A stretch of DNA of 20,000 nt from an uncultured virus (IMG/VR IMGVR_UViG_3300037418_002259) (Duplodnaviria > Heunggongvirae > Uroviricota > Caudoviricetes): the IMG/VR virus record IMGVR_UViG_3300037418_002259; one strand, given 5' to 3'. This document shows positions 1 through 10,383 of the stretch, in pieces. The notes beneath the pieces are model-generated. The model saw only the letters and a list, made by a program, of their open reading frames with translations. It was not told the DNA's origin and did not search any database. Both the position numbers and the translations under genes were made by a program. Every line of letters begins with the position of its first letter. The stretch's first letter is position 1.

Positions 1-37
1 GCGCGCTTCTCCTGGCGCGCGCCTTCCGCGCGCGCGC

Positions 38-553
38 TCACTGCGCGTCCTCATCGCCGCGCGCGTCCTGCGGTGCGCGCTGGCTGGTGCTGCCGTACTG
101 GATCCCGCCGCGCGCTGCGTGCAGCACGACGTGCGCCGGAGCCGCGTTCACGGCATCTCCGATCGGGTCGCCGAAGCGCGCTCCGTGCAACTCGACCGAC
201 TGTGAGCCGATGACATGCGGGGGGAGGGTGACGCGCTTTCCGGTCGGATCGTTCGGGCGCGCGGCTTCAGCGCAGCCTTCCTCGTGCGGGGTGACCCACA
301 GCACGCTGCGCGTCTGGTCCTCCCATTCGAGGGTGACGCCGCCCGGGGGCTGCTCGGTCTTGCTGTTCACGATCACAGCGGCCGGCCGGTTGCAGGTCCC
401 ACACGGTCGGTGCGTGCCGCCGGTGAATCCGGTCATGGTCAGTTGGGGGCGCTGGCCGACGAAGTGTGCGGATCCTTCGCCGATCGGTACGCCGTCGAGG
501 TACGCGGTGCCGGTCCCGAGGACGGGCTGGGGAGGGGTGTGGTGGTCGCTCAT
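38..553 (-). CDS. hypothetical phage protein (171 aa, one CxxC)
   Basis: ORF track; protein-like composition, unlike the overlapping Arg/Ala-rich shadow frames; GGACGG just before the ATG; stop overlaps a possible next GTG at 41 (gene running off the left edge). Confidence 0.65.
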   Translation of the reverse strand: MSDHHTPPQPVLGTGTAYLDGVPIGEGSAHFVGQRPQLTMTGFTGGTHRPCGTCNRPAAVIVNSKTEQPPGGVTLEWEDQTRSVLWVTPHEEGCAEAARPNDPTGKRVTLPPHVIGSQSVELHGARFGDPIGDAVNAAPAHVVLHAARGGIQYGSTSQRAPQDARGDEDAQ

Positions 554-669
554 CCGTCCATCGTAGTTTGAAGCATAATCATGGTTCTGTTTAACTCGCC
601 GGAAAATCGCGCTCAGAAGGGGTTCGGTTTGGGGTTCTGTTTGCCCTCCGAGCCGATCCGGGCAAACAG

Positions 670-703
670 AACCCCCTGAGCCGGGGTTCGGTCTCAGGGG
701 GTT
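670..703 (-). terminator. probable intrinsic terminator after the 719-925 gene
   Basis: Inverted repeat AACCCCCTGAG...CTCAGGGGGTT followed on the minus strand by CTGTTT; overlaps a second 16-bp inverted repeat (631-646/660-675). Confidence 0.5.
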
Positions 704-718
704 TCGGTGGCCGGCGAG

Positions 719-925
719 CTAGGCGGCGAGGCGGTACGTCTTGGTTTTGGTGCCGACCTTCACCCGCAGCTCGCACTGCTCCGGGCGGCGCTTGTGTGCC
801 TTCGCCATGGTCTTCAGCACGCTCAGACAGGCGTCTTCGTCGCCCTGGTCGACCACAACGGTGGTCGTCTCCAGGTGGTTCGTACGGCCTCGTTTGCCGA
901 TCTCGCGGAGTTCTACGCGCGCCAT
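719..925 (-). CDS. hypothetical protein, 68 aa (MARVELREIG...KTYRLAA)
   Basis: Start re-called at the ATG at 925 because AGGAGAC lies just upstream on the minus strand, the same RBS motif used by the rightward genes. Confidence 0.75.
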   Translation of the reverse strand: MARVELREIGKRGRTNHLETTTVVVDQGDEDACLSVLKTMAKAHKRRPEQCELRVKVGTKTKTYRLAA

Positions 926-1064
926 GATCCGGGGTCTCCTGTCGTCCGGGGTACGCGTCCATTGGACCCGATTTCGGGCCGAAAGTCCCGCGTTTCCTGG
1001 CTCCCTCGCGCGCGTTACGCGCAACGCGCGCGCCTGCGCGCGTAGGGCCGATCTTAGGCGCTCG

Positions 1065-1089
1065 TGTGAGCCTGTGAGCCGTGTGAGCC
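1065..1089. repeat. three tandem TGTGAGCC direct repeats in the divergent intergenic region
   Basis: TGTGAGCC at 1065-1072, 1073-1080 and 1082-1089. Confidence 0.7.
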
Positions 1090-1219
1090 CGCGGGCGTGT
1101 CGCGGCACGTCATGCGCGGGTTCGTACGTGCGTGACGGGGGTGCGCGTGATGCGTGTGCAACGTGTCGCGCGGGCGAGTTGCGCCGGCGCGGGCGTCCGC
1201 TCGATGCGTGCACACCCGC

Positions 1220-1248
1220 TTGCCTTCCACGCTAAGCGGGTATACGCT
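1220..1248 (+). promoter_or_regulatory. class I promoter P1 (SigA-like, conserved spacer box)
   Basis: TTGCCT-17 nt-TACGCT; spacer contains GCTAAGCGGGTA; inverted half-site ACCCGCTT at 1214-1221. Confidence 0.8.
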
Positions 1249-1257
1249 TGAAGTGTT

Positions 1258-1383
1258 GGGAGCGCGGCAGCAAGCGGAGCGGTGAAACGCCCCGGGCGCT
1301 GATGGCGGACAGCCTCACGGCAGTGAGGTCCGTTGGACGGCACGGAGGAATCCGAGCGAAGGTTCGAACCCTTCCGCTCCCCA
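1258..1383 (+). ncRNA. tRNA-like structured RNA with enlarged anticodon region
   Basis: Acceptor stem GGGAGCG(1258-1264)/CGCTCCC(1375-1381); canonical T-arm GAAGG-TTCGAAC-CCTTC (1358-1374); D-arm-like GCG-GAGCGGTGAAA-CGC (1274-1290); extra internal helices; starts ~10 nt after the P1 -10 box. Confidence 0.65.
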
Positions 1384-1392
1384 CACCAAGCA

Positions 1393-1410
1393 CCGGGAAG
1401 AGCAGCCCGG
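1393..1410 (+). promoter_or_regulatory. AAGAGCAG-loop leader hairpin 1
   Basis: CCGGG-AAGAGCAG-CCCGG, upstream of AGGAGAC and ATG 1433. Confidence 0.8.
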
Positions 1411-1432
1411 CCGGAGACACAGGAGACCCGAG

Positions 1433-1693
1433 ATGCCCGCAGCGATCCTCATCACCGTCGACCACCTCGACCCGTTCGCCACCGACTCGACCCCCGTCAA
1501 GGCGACCAGGCTCCGCGAGGGCATGGTGATCATGGACCCCGAACTCGGCACCCCGGCGCTGTGGCTCGACCACCGCACCCGCTCGACCCGCGGGTCCGGC
1601 AGCGTCTCGTGGTACGCCCACGACTTGGAGACCGGCCGGTTCGGCCCGCACACCTTCCACGAGAACCACCAGGTCAACGTCCTCGCGGACTGA
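1433..1693 (+). CDS. hypothetical protein, 86 aa
   Basis: ORF with AGGAGAC RBS and GC3-biased codons. Confidence 0.85.
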   Translation: MPAAILITVDHLDPFATDSTPVKATRLREGMVIMDPELGTPALWLDHRTRSTRGSGSVSWYAHDLETGRFGPHTFHENHQVNVLAD

Positions 1694-1729
1694 CCCGACG
1701 CGACACAACCGCACCACCCATCACACCGT

Positions 1730-1749
1730 GGCCGGAAGAGCAGCCGGCC
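1730..1749 (+). promoter_or_regulatory. AAGAGCAG-loop leader hairpin 2
   Basis: GGCCGG-AAGAGCAG-CCGGCC, upstream of AGGAGAC and ATG 1766. Confidence 0.8.
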
Positions 1750-1765
1750 CGAACAGGAGACCGAA

Positions 1766-2176
1766 ATGGGCAACAACACGCCTGAAGGCACCTTCGACTA
1801 CGACGTCACCGAAGGCGGCGTACTCGTGTACTTCGGCCCGGAGAACGGGCTGGACCTGACCACCCCGAGCGAGAACCCGATCGAACAGCGGGCGAACGTC
1901 GAGCGCGTGATCCGCGTGCTGCGGATGTTCGCGGCAAACCCCGACTCGACCGGCGTCCTGGACCTGGTCGAGAACGCGCCCGAGCCCGCACTGTTGGAGG
2001 CGCTGGCCGCGAACGCAGACGAGGTCATCGCCGAGCTGGAGCGGTACGCACGCGAGATCGGCAAGCCGTGCCGCGCGTGCGGCGGCGAGGGCGGACAGGA
2101 GAGCGGGCGCGATGGGCTCGACTGGACGGTCTGCACCGCCTGCGCCGGCACCCGAGTTGGGGAGTCGGCGGCGTAG
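1766..2176 (+). CDS. hypothetical protein with C-terminal DnaJ-type zinc-finger-like motif
   Basis: CRACGGEG...CTACAGT (CxxCxGxG-like pair); AGGAGAC RBS. Confidence 0.8.
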   Translation: MGNNTPEGTFDYDVTEGGVLVYFGPENGLDLTTPSENPIEQRANVERVIRVLRMFAANPDSTGVLDLVENAPEPALLEALAANADEVIAELERYAREIGKPCRACGGEGGQESGRDGLDWTVCTACAGTRVGESAA

Positions 2177-2214
2177 CACTCCCCCGACTGGACGCTGACT
2201 GGCGTCGCCTAGCA

Positions 2215-2385
2215 GCCTGTCCCTGACGGCAGACGGGGAGTCGACGCCCCAGCCGTTAGGGACAGGCCCGTACGGCGTCTGGTGGCATGGCCCTGGTGTG
2301 GCGCGTCGAGGGAAGTGCCTTTGGCCGTCCGCTCGATGTGCGGATGGGCGGACGACGTCCGTCTACATCGCCCGAGGCGCGCCAC
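2215..2385. other. highly structured intergenic region, candidate ncRNA
   Basis: 16-bp stem 2215-2230/2252-2267 (one G-U); GTGGCGCG(2298-2305)/CGCGCCAC(2378-2385) enclosing further helices; no credible ORF. Confidence 0.4.
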
Positions 2386-2403
2386 CCACGCCGGATCTGA
2401 ATT

Positions 2404-2449
2404 CGTATACCCGCTTAGCTTGCGCCATGACGCTAAGCGGGTATACGCT
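2404..2449 (+). promoter_or_regulatory. class I promoter P2 embedded in a perfect 16-bp inverted repeat
   Basis: TTGCGC(2420)-18 nt-TACGCT(2444-2449); CGTATACCCGCTTAGC(2404-2419)/GCTAAGCGGGTATACG(2432-2447). Confidence 0.8.
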
Positions 2450-2458
2450 TGCGTCATC

Positions 2459-2478
2459 GGGTCGAAGAGCAGCGGCCC
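2459..2478 (+). promoter_or_regulatory. AAGAGCAG-loop leader hairpin 3
   Basis: GGGTCG-AAGAGCAG-CGGCCC (one U-G pair). Confidence 0.75.
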
Positions 2479-2498
2479 CAGACCGAGGAGACACCACG

Positions 2499-3281
2499 AT
2501 GGACCTGACCACCGCCACCCCCGTCGAGATCGACACCAAACTGGCCGAGATCTCCGAAGAGGTCCGCAGCGCCCAGGTGATCGCAACGGCCGCATGGAAC
2601 AGCGTCGTCCGAGCCGCCACCAAGTACGTCGGCAAGGAAGGCAAGTTCGAGCGGGTCGGCCGCAAGACGGTCGCGATGCGCGCCACCGACGAGGAGATCC
2701 AGACCGCGCTGGTCGAGGCCGCCGAGTTCGAGGGCCAAGACATCTGCGCGATGGAGACGGCGGAGCAGCGAGTCAAGGCGTGGAACGGGCTGGACCTGGT
2801 CGAGGCGCAAGTCAGGTTCGAGGAGGCTGCCGACAAGGTTGCCGCGATCAAGGTGACCGCGCTGCCGTACGACGCCGAGTTCACCCGGCGCGGCGGCTGG
2901 TCCCGGTTCTTCCTGGTGACCAGCTCCGACGGGCACATCCACTCATCGATGAACTGCTCGACCTGCAACCCGCGCACAACGTACGCCTGGTACCCCGAGT
3001 TCTCTGGCCAGACCATGGCCGAGGCGATCGCCGCCTGGGACGAGCGAGGCTCCGCCGAGGTCCTGTGCACCACCTGCTTCCCCGACGCCCCCACCCCGCG
3101 GACACAGAAGCCGGTCGAGGACGGCGTGTGCCCCGGCTCTGGCACCTGGGACTACCCGGCCGAGACCGCCCGCAAGGGGTACGCCGCTGGAAACTACGGC
3201 GTCTGCCGCCACTGCGGCACCGCGATCACGATCAGCTCGACCGGCAAGATGCGGAAGCACAAGACCCCGAAGGCAGCCTGA
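2499..3281 (+). CDS. hypothetical Cys/His-rich (probably zinc-binding) phage protein, 260 aa
   Basis: Start re-called to ATG 2499 (AGGAGAC RBS); motifs GHIHSSMNCSTC, LCTTCFPDAP, CPGSG...CRHC. Confidence 0.85.
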   Translation: MDLTTATPVEIDTKLAEISEEVRSAQVIATAAWNSVVRAATKYVGKEGKFERVGRKTVAMRATDEEIQTALVEAAEFEGQDICAMETAEQRVKAWNGLDLVEAQVRFEEAADKVAAIKVTALPYDAEFTRRGGWSRFFLVTSSDGHIHSSMNCSTCNPRTTYAWYPEFSGQTMAEAIAAWDERGSAEVLCTTCFPDAPTPRTQKPVEDGVCPGSGTWDYPAETARKGYAAGNYGVCRHCGTAITISSTGKMRKHKTPKAA

Positions 3282-3553: not shown

Positions 3554-3961
3554 ATGACCGCACTGAAACTGTTCGCCGGCACCGCAGTCTGGGTCCCCAA
3601 CGCCTGGAAGCGGCGCGTGACGGACGGCCCGCACTCGCAGCTTGACGTCGTTATCGTGGCCGCTTCCAAGGCAGGAGCGATCGAACTGCTGACCGGGATC
3701 GGCGAGCATGACAGCGCGGCCCAGGCCATCGCCCGCGCCTGCAGGTGGCAGCGCGACCACATGAGCAATCCGGTCCGCGATCTGGTGGACGCGAAAGTCG
3801 TCGACATGGACCAGGCCGGGATCTACGTGTGGAAGCGGTACGCGAAGGACAACCCCGTCGCTCGCATCGACGCGCCCGGGATGCCGATCGTCGGCCACTT
3901 CCGCATCGCGAAGGGCGAGCGTGGCTCGTGGTCGATGTACGCCGAGAAGGTGTCGGCATGA
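3554..3961 (+). CDS. hypothetical protein, 135 aa
   Basis: Start re-called to ATG 3554 (AGGAGAC upstream); stop overlaps next start (ATGA). Confidence 0.8.
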   Translation: MTALKLFAGTAVWVPNAWKRRVTDGPHSQLDVVIVAASKAGAIELLTGIGEHDSAAQAIARACRWQRDHMSNPVRDLVDAKVVDMDQAGIYVWKRYAKDNPVARIDAPGMPIVGHFRIAKGERGSWSMYAEKVSA

Positions 3962-4539
3962 CGATGCAGACCGCTCGCCCGATCGAGCACATCCAGGTCT
4001 CGACCATGACCCGCCCGTTGGGGTGGATCCTCGACTTCGCCCGGCCCGACCACCGACGCCATCTGGACATGGATCAGCCCTACCAGCGCGGCGACGTGTG
4101 GGGGCTCACCCGCCGGCGGAACCTCATCCGCTCGATGCTGCTCGGCGTGCCGATCCCGAGCCTGGTCGTCAACGACCGGTTCAGCGCACGGTTCCGCGAG
4201 CCCGGCTACGACCAGGACCGCAACTGGGCGTACGCGCTCGTCGACGGCAAGCAGCGCGCCACCACGTGGCTGATGTTCGTCGCCGACGAGTTCTCGGTGC
4301 CGGCGTCGTGGTTCGCTGAGGGAGTCTTGCGCGGCGAGGACACTGACGATGGCCCGTATGTGCGGCACAGCGGGCTCTCCGAGAGCATGCAGCGGATGTT
4401 TGACACGATGCCGATTGGGGTCGCGGAGGGCCGGTTTAAGACGCTCGAAGCTGAGCGGTACATCTTCGACCTGGTGAACTTCGGTGGCGTCGCCCAGGGC
4501 GAGAGTGACGACGACTTGGTGGTTCCCGAGGCGCGGTGA
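3958..4539 (+). CDS. DUF262-like (ParB/Srx-fold, GmrSD N-terminal-type) domain protein, 193 aa
   Basis: Motifs PYQRGDVW, LIRSMLLGVPIP and LVDGKQR match the QR...W / DGQQR signature of DUF262; ATGA coupling. Confidence 0.8.
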   Translation: MTMQTARPIEHIQVSTMTRPLGWILDFARPDHRRHLDMDQPYQRGDVWGLTRRRNLIRSMLLGVPIPSLVVNDRFSARFREPGYDQDRNWAYALVDGKQRATTWLMFVADEFSVPASWFAEGVLRGEDTDDGPYVRHSGLSESMQRMFDTMPIGVAEGRFKTLEAERYIFDLVNFGGVAQGESDDDLVVPEAR

Positions 4540-7854: not shown

Positions 7855-8204
7855 GCGGCCTCGGACTGACTGACCCGCAGATGCGTGCCCTGCAAGCCGT
7901 GTACGACCTGTCCGGCGAGCACGAGGGCCGCTGCGAGATGGTCAGCCCGAGGCAGGTCGCGCTGCGACTCTGGCCGGACTCCCCCGCGTGGGATCGCCGG
8001 CCACGCCGCCAGGATGGCCACTTCGGTGGCCGGGGCGGCACGATGCCGATGAAGGCCGGGAAACTGCTGTGGCACCTACACAGCCGCGGACTGGCCCGGC
8101 GACACGAGAAACGCAACCTGTGGTCGCTGACCGCGCTCGGCTTGGACACTGTCCAGACCGCGCGGTCAGCGCTCACGCTCCCGATCCCGGAGACCACCCG
8201 ATGA
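7851..8204 (+). CDS. putative winged-helix DNA-binding protein, 117 aa
   Basis: LTDPQMRAL...SPRQVA...LWHLHSRGLARR...WSLTALG resembles a wHTH pattern; ATGA overlaps at both ends. Confidence 0.6.
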   Translation: MSGLGLTDPQMRALQAVYDLSGEHEGRCEMVSPRQVALRLWPDSPAWDRRPRRQDGHFGGRGGTMPMKAGKLLWHLHSRGLARRHEKRNLWSLTALGLDTVQTARSALTLPIPETTR

Positions 8205-9934
8205 CCCTCAAGCTCGCGCCGGACTTCACCATGCCCGACCAGGCCGTCACAGAGACCTTCGGCATCCTCGCCGTACGACGCTCCGGCAAATCGAACGCCG
8301 CCGTCGTCATAGCTGAGGAGATGTACCACGCCGGGCTGCCGTGGGTCGCGATCGACCCCAAGGGCGACTGGTGGGGCATGCGTTCGTCCGGCGACGGCAA
8401 GAAGCCCGGCCTGTCCGTGCTCGTGTTCGGAGGCGACCACGCCGACGTGCCGCTGGAGCCGACAGGCGGCGAGCTGGTCGCGGACCTGATCGTCGACCAG
8501 CGCATCACCTGCATCCTCGACATCTCGGAGATGATCAAGGCCGAGCAGACCCGGTTCCTGCTGGCGTTCGCGAACCGCCTCTACAAGCGCAACCGGAAGC
8601 CGCTGCACGTGTTCTGCGAGGAAGCCGACGAGTACATCCCGCAGCAGGTGCTCGGCGAGGACGCCAAGGTCGTGCGGGCGTTCGAGATCCTGATCAAGCG
8701 CGGCGGCCACCGAGGGATCGGGTCGACGCTGATCACGCAGCGGTCCGCGTCGCTGAACAACAACGTGCTCACGCAGGTCGAGACGCTGTTCGCGATGCGC
8801 ACGCTCGGAACGTCGGACCGGAAGGCCGTGAAGGACTGGGCGACCGGCCACGACACCGGCGTCGACGTCGTCGCCGAGCTGCCGCACCTCCACCAGGGCG
8901 AGGCGTGGGTGTTCTCCCCGCACTTCCTGCAGACCGTGCAGAAGATCCAGTTCCGTCGACGCCGCACGTTCGACTCCGGAGCTACCCCGAAGGTAGGCCA
9001 GGAGATCATCACCCCGACCCGTCGCGCCGACGTCGACCTCGCCGCGATCCGCGACGCGATGGCAGAGACGATCGAACGCGCCCAGGAGAACGACCCCGCC
9101 GAGCTGCGCCGGCGGAACGCTGCACTCGAGCGGAAGCTCGCGGACGCGCTGCGGCAACTGAAGCAGATCACGCCGCCGAAGCCGATCGAGGTCAAGGTCC
9201 CCGTGCTCACGGACGAGATGCGGGAGTCGATGCTGGCCGCGTCCGAGCGCATCGGCGAGCGGGTAGCTGCCGTGATGGCCGAGGCGCAGGAACAGATCGC
9301 TGCGGCAGTCGCCCCGGTCGTGGAAGCGCTCCGGACAGCCAAGATCCCCACCGTGCCGTCACCGAACATGGTCAAGCCGCCGCGACTTCCATCTGTCCGC
9401 CCGGTCGACGTCACACCGCGCGTCATCGACGCCACCAAGCCGGACACGGTCCACCTGGAAGGCGCTGGAGCGCGCCGAATGGTCGAGGCGCTGGGCCGGA
9501 TGGCTCCGCTCCGGCTGACGAAAGCTCAGTGGGGCACTGTCTCGCACATGAAGACCAGCGGCGGCACCTGGTCGACGTACCTGAGCCGGATCCGTCAGCT
9601 CGGGTTCCTCGACGAGAACGCCGCCGGTTACACGCTCACCGATGCCGGGTTCGACTACCTCGGCGGCCGGCCCGAGCCGATGACCGCTGCCGAACTGCAG
9701 GACCACTACCGCACGATCCTGCGCGCCGGGGCCGCGAAGATGCTCGACGCGCTGCTCGACGCCTACCCGCACGCGCTGACCAAAGACCAGCTCGGCGAGG
9801 CCGCCGGCATCGTCACCACCGGTGGCACGTTCTCGACGTACCTCGGAGACCTGACCCGCAACGGCCTGGCAGAGCGCCGCCCGGACGGCACCATCGCCGC
9901 TACCGACATCCTCATCCACGGAGCCAATCAGTGA
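8201..9934 (+). CDS. HerA/FtsK-superfamily (DUF87-like) P-loop ATPase with coiled coil and tandem C-terminal winged helices, 577 aa
   Basis: Walker A AVRRSGKS, IDPKGDW, Walker B VFCEEADE, KRGGHRG, LITQR; start re-called to ATG 8201 (GGAGAC RBS, ATGA overlap). Confidence 0.85.
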   Translation: MTLKLAPDFTMPDQAVTETFGILAVRRSGKSNAAVVIAEEMYHAGLPWVAIDPKGDWWGMRSSGDGKKPGLSVLVFGGDHADVPLEPTGGELVADLIVDQRITCILDISEMIKAEQTRFLLAFANRLYKRNRKPLHVFCEEADEYIPQQVLGEDAKVVRAFEILIKRGGHRGIGSTLITQRSASLNNNVLTQVETLFAMRTLGTSDRKAVKDWATGHDTGVDVVAELPHLHQGEAWVFSPHFLQTVQKIQFRRRRTFDSGATPKVGQEIITPTRRADVDLAAIRDAMAETIERAQENDPAELRRRNAALERKLADALRQLKQITPPKPIEVKVPVLTDEMRESMLAASERIGERVAAVMAEAQEQIAAAVAPVVEALRTAKIPTVPSPNMVKPPRLPSVRPVDVTPRVIDATKPDTVHLEGAGARRMVEALGRMAPLRLTKAQWGTVSHMKTSGGTWSTYLSRIRQLGFLDENAAGYTLTDAGFDYLGGRPEPMTAAELQDHYRTILRAGAAKMLDALLDAYPHALTKDQLGEAAGIVTTGGTFSTYLGDLTRNGLAERRPDGTIAATDILIHGANQ

Positions 9935-10383
9935 CCGCTGCGCTGACCTTCGCCGTGCTCGCCCCGACCCTGTACGCCGCGCACCATGTCGGCGACTACT
10001 GGGTCCAGACCCACCACCAGGCGCTCACCAAAGGCATACCGCGCCGTGCGGGACAGCTCGCCTGTCTGCGGCACGTCGCGACGTACACCGTCACCACGGC
10101 GCTGTTCATCGCGATCGTGTGGGCGCTGTTCGACCTGGACGTCACCTGGTGGGGATTCGCCGCCGGCCAGATCGCGTCTGCCGTCACGCACTACTGGGCA
10201 GACCGTCGTACGCCGCTGCTGCGCCTCGCCGACCGCTTGGGCAAGACAGAGTTCGCCGTACTCGGTACGCCGCGCCAAGGCCGCGACGACAACCCAACGC
10301 TTGGCACCGGCGCGACCGCGCTCGACCAGGCATGGCACCACCTATGGCTGTGGATCGCAGCCCTACTGACCGCACTGATCTGA
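9931..10383 (+). CDS. DUF3307-like His-rich membrane protein, 150 aa
   Basis: AHHVGDYWVQT...K, HVATY, HYWAD and DQAWH motifs with hydrophobic helices; GTGA overlap. Confidence 0.8.
   Translation: MTAALTFAVLAPTLYAAHHVGDYWVQTHHQALTKGIPRRAGQLACLRHVATYTVTTALFIAIVWALFDLDVTWWGFAAGQIASAVTHYWADRRTPLLRLADRLGKTEFAVLGTPRQGRDDNPTLGTGATALDQAWHHLWLWIAALLTALI

Follow-up and report, generated by a model that had tools for sequence, protein, structure and literature searches.

A discrete tRNA-derived RNA module, recognised by no current family model, in an uncultured virus record and an unrelated phage contig

The 20,000-nucleotide (nt) stretch of DNA analysed here, referred to as the window, belongs to the IMG/VR record IMGVR_UViG_3300037418_002259 of an uncultured virus (Caudoviricetes) and contains at positions 1258-1382 a 125-nt RNA gene in the shape of a transfer RNA (tRNA), whose 7-base-pair (bp) acceptor stem is stacked on a canonical T-arm and closes a five-way junction. 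This element is a real, discrete, tRNA-derived structured RNA module which no current family model recognises; it is established that the structure exists and is not random, that close relatives lack the element, and that it turns up again as a unit in an unrelated phage contig (locus L017). It would best be described as a non-decoding tRNA mimic, a known kind of RNA in a new form. The fuller reading which we prefer, with a confidence slightly short of even, is that window 1258-1393 represents a moron-like, horizontally moved gene for a non-decoding tRNA mimic of approximately 125 nt, which would be excised by tRNA enzymes and act via its bulged helix.

A first-pass annotation, made from the letters of the window alone, had noticed the tRNA-like fold; its observation is confirmed and its interpretation is partly supported, namely as regards a tRNA-shaped RNA that does not decode. 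The roles it suggested, as a nuclease decoy, a ribosome/RelA ligand or a processing signal, and transcription from P1 are candidates. The parts of the element are the following.

1258-1264, plus strand: acceptor stem 5′ strand GGGAGCG; the similarity to L017 begins exactly here.
1268-1301, plus strand: D-like arm with stem CAGC/GCTG, loop AAG...GGC and a hairpin inserted at 1275-1294.
1304-1334, plus strand: arm at the anticodon position, with 5 bp (GGCGG/CCGTT), a 3-nt bulge ACA, 7 bp (GCCTCAC/GTGAGGT) and a GGCA loop.
1310-1341, plus strand: 32-nt block identical in the window and L017, the longest identical run (alignment columns 60-91), which includes GGTCCG.
1340-1357, plus strand: variable-arm-like hairpin GC-A-CGGA-GGAA-TCCG-A-GC, without spacer against the T-arm; its CGGA-GGAA-TCCG core is at 1343-1354.
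1358-1374, plus strand: canonical T-arm GAAGG (1358-1362), TTCGAAC (1363-1369), CCTTC (1370-1374).
1375-1382, plus strand: acceptor stem 3′ strand CGCTCCC and discriminator C1382; CCA is not encoded at 1383-1385.
1383-1393, plus strand: short trailer of the inserted module, as read from the letters, with CAAGC common to L017.

The acceptor strands (1258-1264 and 1375-1381) pair at 7/7 positions and the T-arm abuts the acceptor 3′ strand with a spacer of 0 nt, just as the annotation had read them. The hairpin insert at 1304-1334 in place of an anticodon loop and the hairpin at 1343-1354 are also present as it described; the 5-bp stem 1304-1308/1330-1334 encloses 21 nt with the 7-bp helix and the GGCA loop, and a 7-nt anticodon loop is absent. 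The D-like arm, on the other hand, had been placed at 1274-1290 behind a 9-nt linker and is better read with a 3-nt linker (CGG), a 4-bp stem (CAGC at 1268-1271, GCTG at 1298-1301) and a D-loop with an inserted hairpin, with which the homologue agrees; by tRNA numbering (A14 R15 ... G18 G19) this first arm would be a D-arm that received a hairpin in its loop. The free minimum free energy (MFE) fold of 1258-1382 is exactly the five-way junction (-59.0 kcal/mol), composed of the acceptor, the CAGC/GCTG-closed arm, the long bulged arm, the GGAA-capped hairpin and the T-arm. Folding of 1253-1388 gives -64.3 kcal/mol (z = -2.37; 3/200 shuffles as good), with an extra pairing GTGT/ACAC (1253-1256/1383-1386) that is not retained in the homologue. 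Among the tRNA parts that processing and end-recognising enzymes read, the element has kept the 7-bp acceptor on the T-arm, the AA...GG of the D-loop and, as in class II tRNAs, a variable hairpin which abuts the T-arm.

The homologue occupies positions 288-417 of L017 (identical with L016), an IMG/VR contig of 5,948 bp found by an 18-nt hairpin probe. The genes of this contig include one for a terminase large subunit (phrog_979), with no more than 48% identity to the terminases of Arthrobacter phages; proteins common to the window and L017 were not found. Similarity between the two copies starts exactly at acceptor base 1 (L017 288) and fades approximately 10 nt past the acceptor 3′ strand, where only CAAGC is shared, and as these edges coincide with the insertion/deletion edges in the window, the element is a discrete module. 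Outside the inner part of the first arm, 94 of 105 core positions are identical. In both copies, every one of the 33 model pairs is formed (66/66 cells), including the 12/12 invariant pairs of the arm at the anticodon position. One pair change is compensatory (A-U to G-C in the T-stem, the L017 T-arm being GGAGG-TTCGACC-CCTCC) and another turns G-C into G-U at acceptor pair 3-70, while among the 11 differing core columns three are paired columns, where approximately 6.9 would be expected (binomial P = 0.018), and no pair is broken by any of them. The inner part of the first arm is swapped, with 20 nt in the window and 27 unrelated nt in L017, while the closing stem and AAG/GGC are kept; the variable-arm position of L017 holds a 5-bp hairpin with a 6-nt loop. 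GGTCCG of the 32-nt block lies on the strand running into the variable and T arms, and the invariance of the bulged helix suggests a sequence-specific partner. Covariation, by which homologues could support the fold, thus amounts to 33/33 pairs with one compensatory change in one homologue, with statistics that are weak because two sequences at 90% identity are compared. The annotation had named a decaying ordinary tRNA with an unconserved insert as the outcome that would speak against it; the insert is instead the best-conserved part, with 32 nt identical in the one homologue.

Relatives of the host element were sought among contigs from public runs placed on window 900-2000 (X3 record 3, X8 record 15 and X2). 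The X3 and X8 relatives are 151-nt contigs of depth 2-3 from two independent metagenome studies with differing filler letters, and both align with 1212-1250/1248 and then again from 1394, so that 143-145 nt are skipped and 10 unrelated letters sit in between. They delimit one further feature.

1249-1393, no strand: stretch without counterpart in the related elements (X3 record 3, X8 record 15), containing the whole tRNA-like module.

This direct junction means that the piece was gained, or lost in the relatives, as a block, and the tRNA-like element is an accessory insertion without counterpart in close relatives. The flanks of the relatives differ from the window by approximately 5-10%, and the promoter-region stretch 1212-1250 is kept with 3-4 letters changed; since relatives devoid of the module keep them, this promoter region and the leader from 1394, with its hairpin, ribosome-binding site and first gene, are older. 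The X2 contig, identical to the window over 1330-1480, carries the tRNA-like element.

A chance resemblance to tRNA in GC-rich intergenic DNA is hardly credible. In 2000 first-order Markov simulations of the 20-kilobase (kb) window, a T-arm module defined by a 5-bp stem, the loop TTCRANY and G53/C61 is expected 0.0175 times per 20 kb, and when a 7/7 acceptor complement was also required 40-140 nt upstream, 0/2000 simulations produced it. As the whole scan covered very many windows, and high-GC DNA folds well (the L003 control fold has z = 0.13), the simulations alone are not decisive; it is the insertion/deletion in relatives, with edges that coincide with the structure, together with the recurrence of the same architecture in an unrelated phage contig which dismisses chance decisively. 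The junctions in the relatives, the simulations and the pairing in the independent homologue effectively refute it.

Established models of tRNA and related RNAs do not account for the element. ARAGORN in default, intron and transfer-messenger RNA (tmRNA) modes calls no tRNA or tmRNA at its position, and lowered thresholds yield scattered junk calls on both strands with the tmRNA mode still negative. Rfam has 0 matches at the element at gathering score; in window 1150-1500 and L017 230-470, neither RF00005 nor tmRNA nor YrlA is listed at E<=10, so that the tmRNA and Y RNA models which the annotation had suggested as a check give nothing in either copy, and across the full L017 record RF00005 finds nothing at E<=1. 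The claim that the element is neither a decoding tRNA nor a tmRNA is upheld by these negatives. The only match of the tRNA clan at E<=10 is tRNA-Sec with 17.5 bits (window) and 21.2 bits (L017) against a cut-off of 47; the cut-offs of the other models are 29 bits for RF00005, 69 for YrlA (gathering) and 42.5 for mascRNA. Among the features of a canonical tRNA, acceptor, T-stem and T-loop TTCRANY are present, while the anticodon loop and a family-level score are missing. Insert-bearing tRNAs (L003, L005, L006, L007, L012, L013; 111-132 nt) served as controls; all are missed by ARAGORN but reach 41.6-54.9 bits with RF00005. The element fails that model and so lies at a far greater distance from tRNA than do ordinary genes with an intron or insert.

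Several known RNAs nevertheless invite comparison. The selenocysteine tRNA and allo-tRNA folds (8/5, 9/4, 8/4) are rejected on the 7/5 arrangement of the element and the low tRNA-Sec scores. The tRNA-like domain of tmRNA similarly consists of an acceptor and T-arm top half without anticodon, and the L017 copy has G3-U70 and A73; the element, however, is 125 nt long rather than approximately 300-400 nt and has neither a tag reading frame nor pseudoknots, and the window copy has G3-C70 and C73, so that tmRNA is rejected along with the negative ARAGORN and Rfam results. The annotation had noted that an encoded CCA and G3-U70 are lacking, which holds for the window (1383-1385 read ACA, pair 3-70 is G-C, the discriminator is C73) and fails for the L017 homologue with its G3-U70 and A73. 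Long insert-bearing tRNAs exist in phages, and phage tRNA morons resemble the element in being small RNA genes that some close relatives have and others lack, and that share a transcript with the genes beside them; unlike the element, which has no anticodon loop, the insert-bearing tRNAs have canonical D-arms. As an observation on these genes themselves, L003 (1500-1611 and 900-1024), L005, L006, L007, L012 and L013 hold tRNA genes of 111-150 nt with 35-60-nt inserts after a canonical D-arm; the acceptor GGGAGCG/CGCTCCC is found in 7/8 of the insert-bearing tRNAs listed, which the search pattern required, the eighth (L003 900-1024) coming from the Rfam scan only.

Another parallel is the bacterial Y RNA YrlA, which is a circularly permuted tRNA mimic of the order 5′-Ro motif-V-T-acceptor(closed)-D-3′, is found no more than approximately 4 kb from a same-strand Ro60/Rsr (TROVE) gene and is present in actinobacteria and mycobacteriophages (PMC4201824). 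The YrlA of Mycobacterium smegmatis, whose acceptor stem measures 7 bp, undergoes RNase P cleavage and receives a CCA end (Chen et al. 2014, PMC4201824), a precedent for the processing of such shapes. YrlA and the element share the character of tRNA mimics that do not decode, and both show a T-arm, a D-type loop, a variable arm and an acceptor-like stem; the stem at the anticodon position of YrlA is a protein-binding helix. The vertebrate Ro60 contact is given as GGUCCGA and the bacterial motif as GNCGAAN0-1G in PMC4201824; GGTCCG of the element agrees with the former at 6/7 letters, on the strand where YrlA has its Ro motif. The element, however, follows the tRNA order with an open acceptor and a loop-closed 'anticodon' stem, its sequence GGTCCGTTGG misses GNCGAAN0-1G (TT/UU where AA is required), and the near-invariant D and T stems of YrlA (GCUC/GAGC and GCGGG/CCCGC in the Rfam consensus) are absent. 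YrlA (RF02553) is rejected on these grounds, as the permuted order is absent, the motif is unmatched, the model is not listed at E<=10, and no TROVE/Ro60 gene was found among the 73 open reading frame (ORF) translations of the window, which reaches approximately 1.2 kb leftward from the element. As a control, a YrlA-like RNA of Mycobacterium phage Bxz1 scores 32.5 bits on RF02553. Independently of the element, this RNA (L022, 9980-10056), below the curated threshold, is situated beside a Ro60-like gene, upstream of gp220 annotated as 'RNA-binding protein', and a second stretch with GGCCGAAGG is seen in L022 at about 10100-10200.

The pseudo-tRNA tRNA-Other of Bacillus cereus is reported to have a regulatory role (PMC3399842) and is, like the element, a tRNA-derived RNA not working in translation, whereas it is chromosomal and retains a normal cloverleaf with an anticodon loop. 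The MenT3 toxin is reported to be steered to tRNA-Ser by a variable hairpin abutting the T-arm with spacer 0 (PMC11541572), the arrangement also seen in the variable hairpin of the element. The resemblances of GGTCCG and of the MenT3-type geometry are leads, not evidence. A literature search, as far as its sources were accessible, gave no description of the tRNA-like element.

In the preferred reading, the element would be transcribed together with the downstream genes, starting at the candidate promoter P1 in the window and reaching the phage copy by read-through. The acceptor/T-arm minihelix and the D/T elbow would make the transcript a substrate of RNase P, 3′ trimming and CCA addition, comparable with YrlA of M. 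smegmatis, with RNase P cutting at G1258 and an RNase Z-type activity cutting past the discriminator before CCA is added. Such excision would release a stable small RNA and provide the operon messenger RNA (mRNA) with a processed 5′ end, and the released RNA may serve in trans as ligand or decoy of a host protein, by way of the conserved helix together with the acceptor end. A more specific proposal, built on analogy and rather doubtful, is a novel type of tRNA mimic borne by mobile elements, in which, with the natural tRNA order, the acceptor end and the Ser-type geometry of the variable arm would offer a tRNA top half to enzymes reading that half alone, and the invariant bulged helix with GGUCCG would recruit a host protein, Ro60/Rsr for instance. 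For phages and plasmids it would be a decoy or adaptor directed at defences that target tRNA or at RNA surveillance.

A number of observations weigh against the preferred reading. Position 8 is C instead of U, and the linkers between acceptor and D-arm and between D-arm and second arm are 3 nt and 2 nt; in the D-arm, the 4-bp stem, AAG and GGC are present and conserved, but C8, the 3-nt linker and a hairpin of 20-27 nt in the loop depart from the canonical form. Close relatives without the element indicate that it is dispensable for the operon. The two copies carry different identity elements, which makes it unlikely that an aminoacylation identity is conserved. Two distinct copies were found in addition to the X2 contig, and at 94/105 identical core positions conservation may reflect recent transfer rather than selection. 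The shuffle control of the pairing is uninformative, with 246/500 shuffles reaching the observed values, and for L017 the free MFE fold (-62.5 kcal/mol) surpasses the shared one (-58.8) by 3.7 kcal/mol while breaking up the D-stem and the second arm's outer pairs.

What speaks for a function of the released RNA can be weighed against a function in cis. The element may be solely a leader element, a processing or stability signal for the downstream mRNA through RNase P/Z entry or protection of the 5′ end, which we consider unlikely. In both contexts the element is found 45-50 nt upstream of a same-strand start codon, and the window copy starts approximately 2-5 nt after the likely, predicted transcription start. 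Processing tags of tRNA-like form are a known device: mascRNA/menRNA and the haloarchaeal t-elements stand beside longer transcripts, are cut by RNase P/Z and have no working anticodon arm, and L017 has a mascRNA resemblance of 18.4 bits in Rfam, below the threshold of 42.5. Those tags are, unlike the element, eukaryotic or archaeal, approximately 60 nt long and without extra arms. The genes downstream are unrelated, an 86-amino-acid (aa) protein in the window and a 274-aa protein with a signal-peptide-like N-terminus in L017, relatives have the same operon leader without the element, and a bare processing signal leaves the 32-nt invariant block in a non-tRNA arm unexplained.

Improbable, to a somewhat greater degree, is a decayed or rearranged class II tRNA whose anticodon and D-loops were disrupted by insertions and which has spread as a functionless relic by recombination of mobile elements. 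Genes for tRNAs and pseudo-tRNAs are frequent on phages and plasmids, tRNA-Sec gives the best Rfam resemblances, and at 90% core identity the copies are possibly just young. Such a relic fits poorly, however, with helices that are all intact in both copies, with changes that avoid or compensate paired positions, with a non-tRNA hairpin as the most conserved part, and with a unit that moved between unrelated contexts with exact tRNA-like boundaries; the little-diverged flanks of the relatives moreover leave little time for a normal tRNA to gain three helices after insertion. Still more improbable is a non-autonomous mobile DNA element or attachment (att)-like recombination site that functions as DNA, with the acceptor halves as terminal inverted repeats. 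The sharp presence/absence edges against close relatives, the 7-nt inverted termini and the sequence GGTTCGAACC, itself readable as a DNA palindrome, agree with it. No target-site duplication is visible at 1257/1258 and 1393/1394, though, the window has a single copy in which only the 7-nt acceptor halves are inverted, short of a miniature inverted-repeat transposable element, and no integrase, transposase or other recombinase family occurs in the 73 window ORF translations or the seven ORFs of L017. The 24-nt string of T-arm and acceptor without exact match in the 185,579 species genomes is not the end of a known host tRNA, a weak argument against an att site, and the compensatory T-stem change fits pairing in RNA.

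Searches for further copies used as probes on genome and metagenome contigs the 24-mer, an acceptor/T-loop pattern and the 86-aa neighbour protein. As these preceded the recognition of the 32-nt block, which was not used, the rarity of the element family must not be inferred from two copies. The exact 24-mer had 0 matches in viral contigs as in the species genomes, and from phages and plasmids blastn with the element as query retrieved nothing but short matches, T-arm-like or due to chance. With the 86-aa protein as anchor, nothing was found in viral contigs, metagenome contigs or, by tblastn, plasmids, and the single weak match in genome contigs (L002) is an unrelated locus. The pattern GGGAGCG-N{80,110}-GGTTCGAANCCNNNCGCTCCC retrieved one viral locus (L003) and 11 metagenome loci (L004-L014), all rejected as homologues since they are insert-bearing or tandem tRNAs; three further viral patterns gave no match or a contig already found. 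Candidates from a looser viral pattern (L019, L020) are chance matches in coding regions, and L015, from the 18-mer probe, is a gene-junction hairpin. With the covariance model R1, neither the window nor 17 other loci yielded a second copy, the model's match in L001 (20.9 bits) being without a T-arm.

The element is situated in a divergent intergenic region of approximately 500 nt, between a leftward 69-aa gene that starts near 928 and a rightward operon that starts at 1433. The surrounding features are the following.

1220-1248, plus strand: candidate promoter P1, with TTGCCT (1220-1225), a 17-nt spacer and TACGCT (1243-1248), read from the sequence and kept in relatives.
1393-1410, plus strand: leader hairpin CCGGG-AAGAGCAG-CCCGG, part of the older leader and also present in relatives without the module.
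1433-1693, plus strand: first gene of the rightward operon, 86 aa, phrog_23190, function not assigned.

The start predicted for P1, at approximately 1253-1256, would leave a leader of 2-5 nt before G1258. The actinobacterial -10 form is TANNNT; a scan of positions 1-3000 with a generic promoter consensus gave 0 sites and did not call P1. A third related contig (run X8, record 16) matches the promoter region over window 1218-1259 and then diverges, so that the P1 module may sit before yet other sequences in relatives. The homologues of the 86-aa protein begin with MPAAIL or similar in 5/5 cases, which fixes the start codon and makes the element non-coding. The L017 copy comes after a 55-aa gene and a strong hairpin, and no recognisable promoter was read in the 23 nt between this hairpin and the element, which makes read-through transcription likely. 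At the start of that contig (31-67), a near-consensus promoter TTGACG-17-TATAGT with an ATG 7 nt past the -10 box suggests that the 55-aa gene is leaderless.

The window has a GC content of 0.64-0.72 and belongs to a 136-kb contig; the one run that carries it in full is from a rhizosphere metagenome. By its gene content it resembles large plasmids of Corynebacteriales and would be a plasmid-like actinobacterial element: its HerA/DUF87 ATPase (7988-9934) is 45-52% identical to Mycolicibacterium and Gordonia plasmid proteins, while a few genes have mycobacteriophage relatives (Pixie gp92/93). A protein with a GmrSD_N (DUF262) domain (3745-4539) is encoded in the same rightward gene string as HerA/DUF87; most other ORFs are without family. 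The translation-start regions 927-942 and 1419-1434 form a 16-nt inverted repeat with 88% complementarity (ATCCGGGGTCTCCTGT / ACAGGAGACCCGAGAT), so that both divergent genes share nearly the same sequence from ribosome-binding site to start. Downstream of the leftward 69-aa gene, a lower-GC island (583-712) with three GGTTCTGTTT-like words (583, 621, 633), GGGGTTCGGT repeats and a perfect 16-nt inverted repeat (631-646/660-675) probably constitutes a terminator and protein-binding sites. Upstream of P1, the GCGCGC palindromes (1007-1048), CGTGTGAGCC repeats (1063-1096) and a 21-nt direct repeat (1136-1156/1190-1210) of region 1007-1210 are possible operator or iteron sites.

Bacterial non-decoding tRNA mimics are few, with tmRNA and YrlA as examples, and each has opened a new pathway. 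The element described here resides on two mobile elements that are unrelated and have GC-rich hosts, probably actinobacteria, and is missed by tRNA finders and Rfam. It keeps the half of the tRNA that is read by processing enzymes, some synthetases and toxins which modify the acceptor end, while the decoding half is swapped for an invariant helix. If expressed and processed, it would exemplify in compact form how a mobile element provides a tRNA decoy or adaptor; if a mere relic, it would still show that tRNA-derived modules move between plasmids and phages as units.

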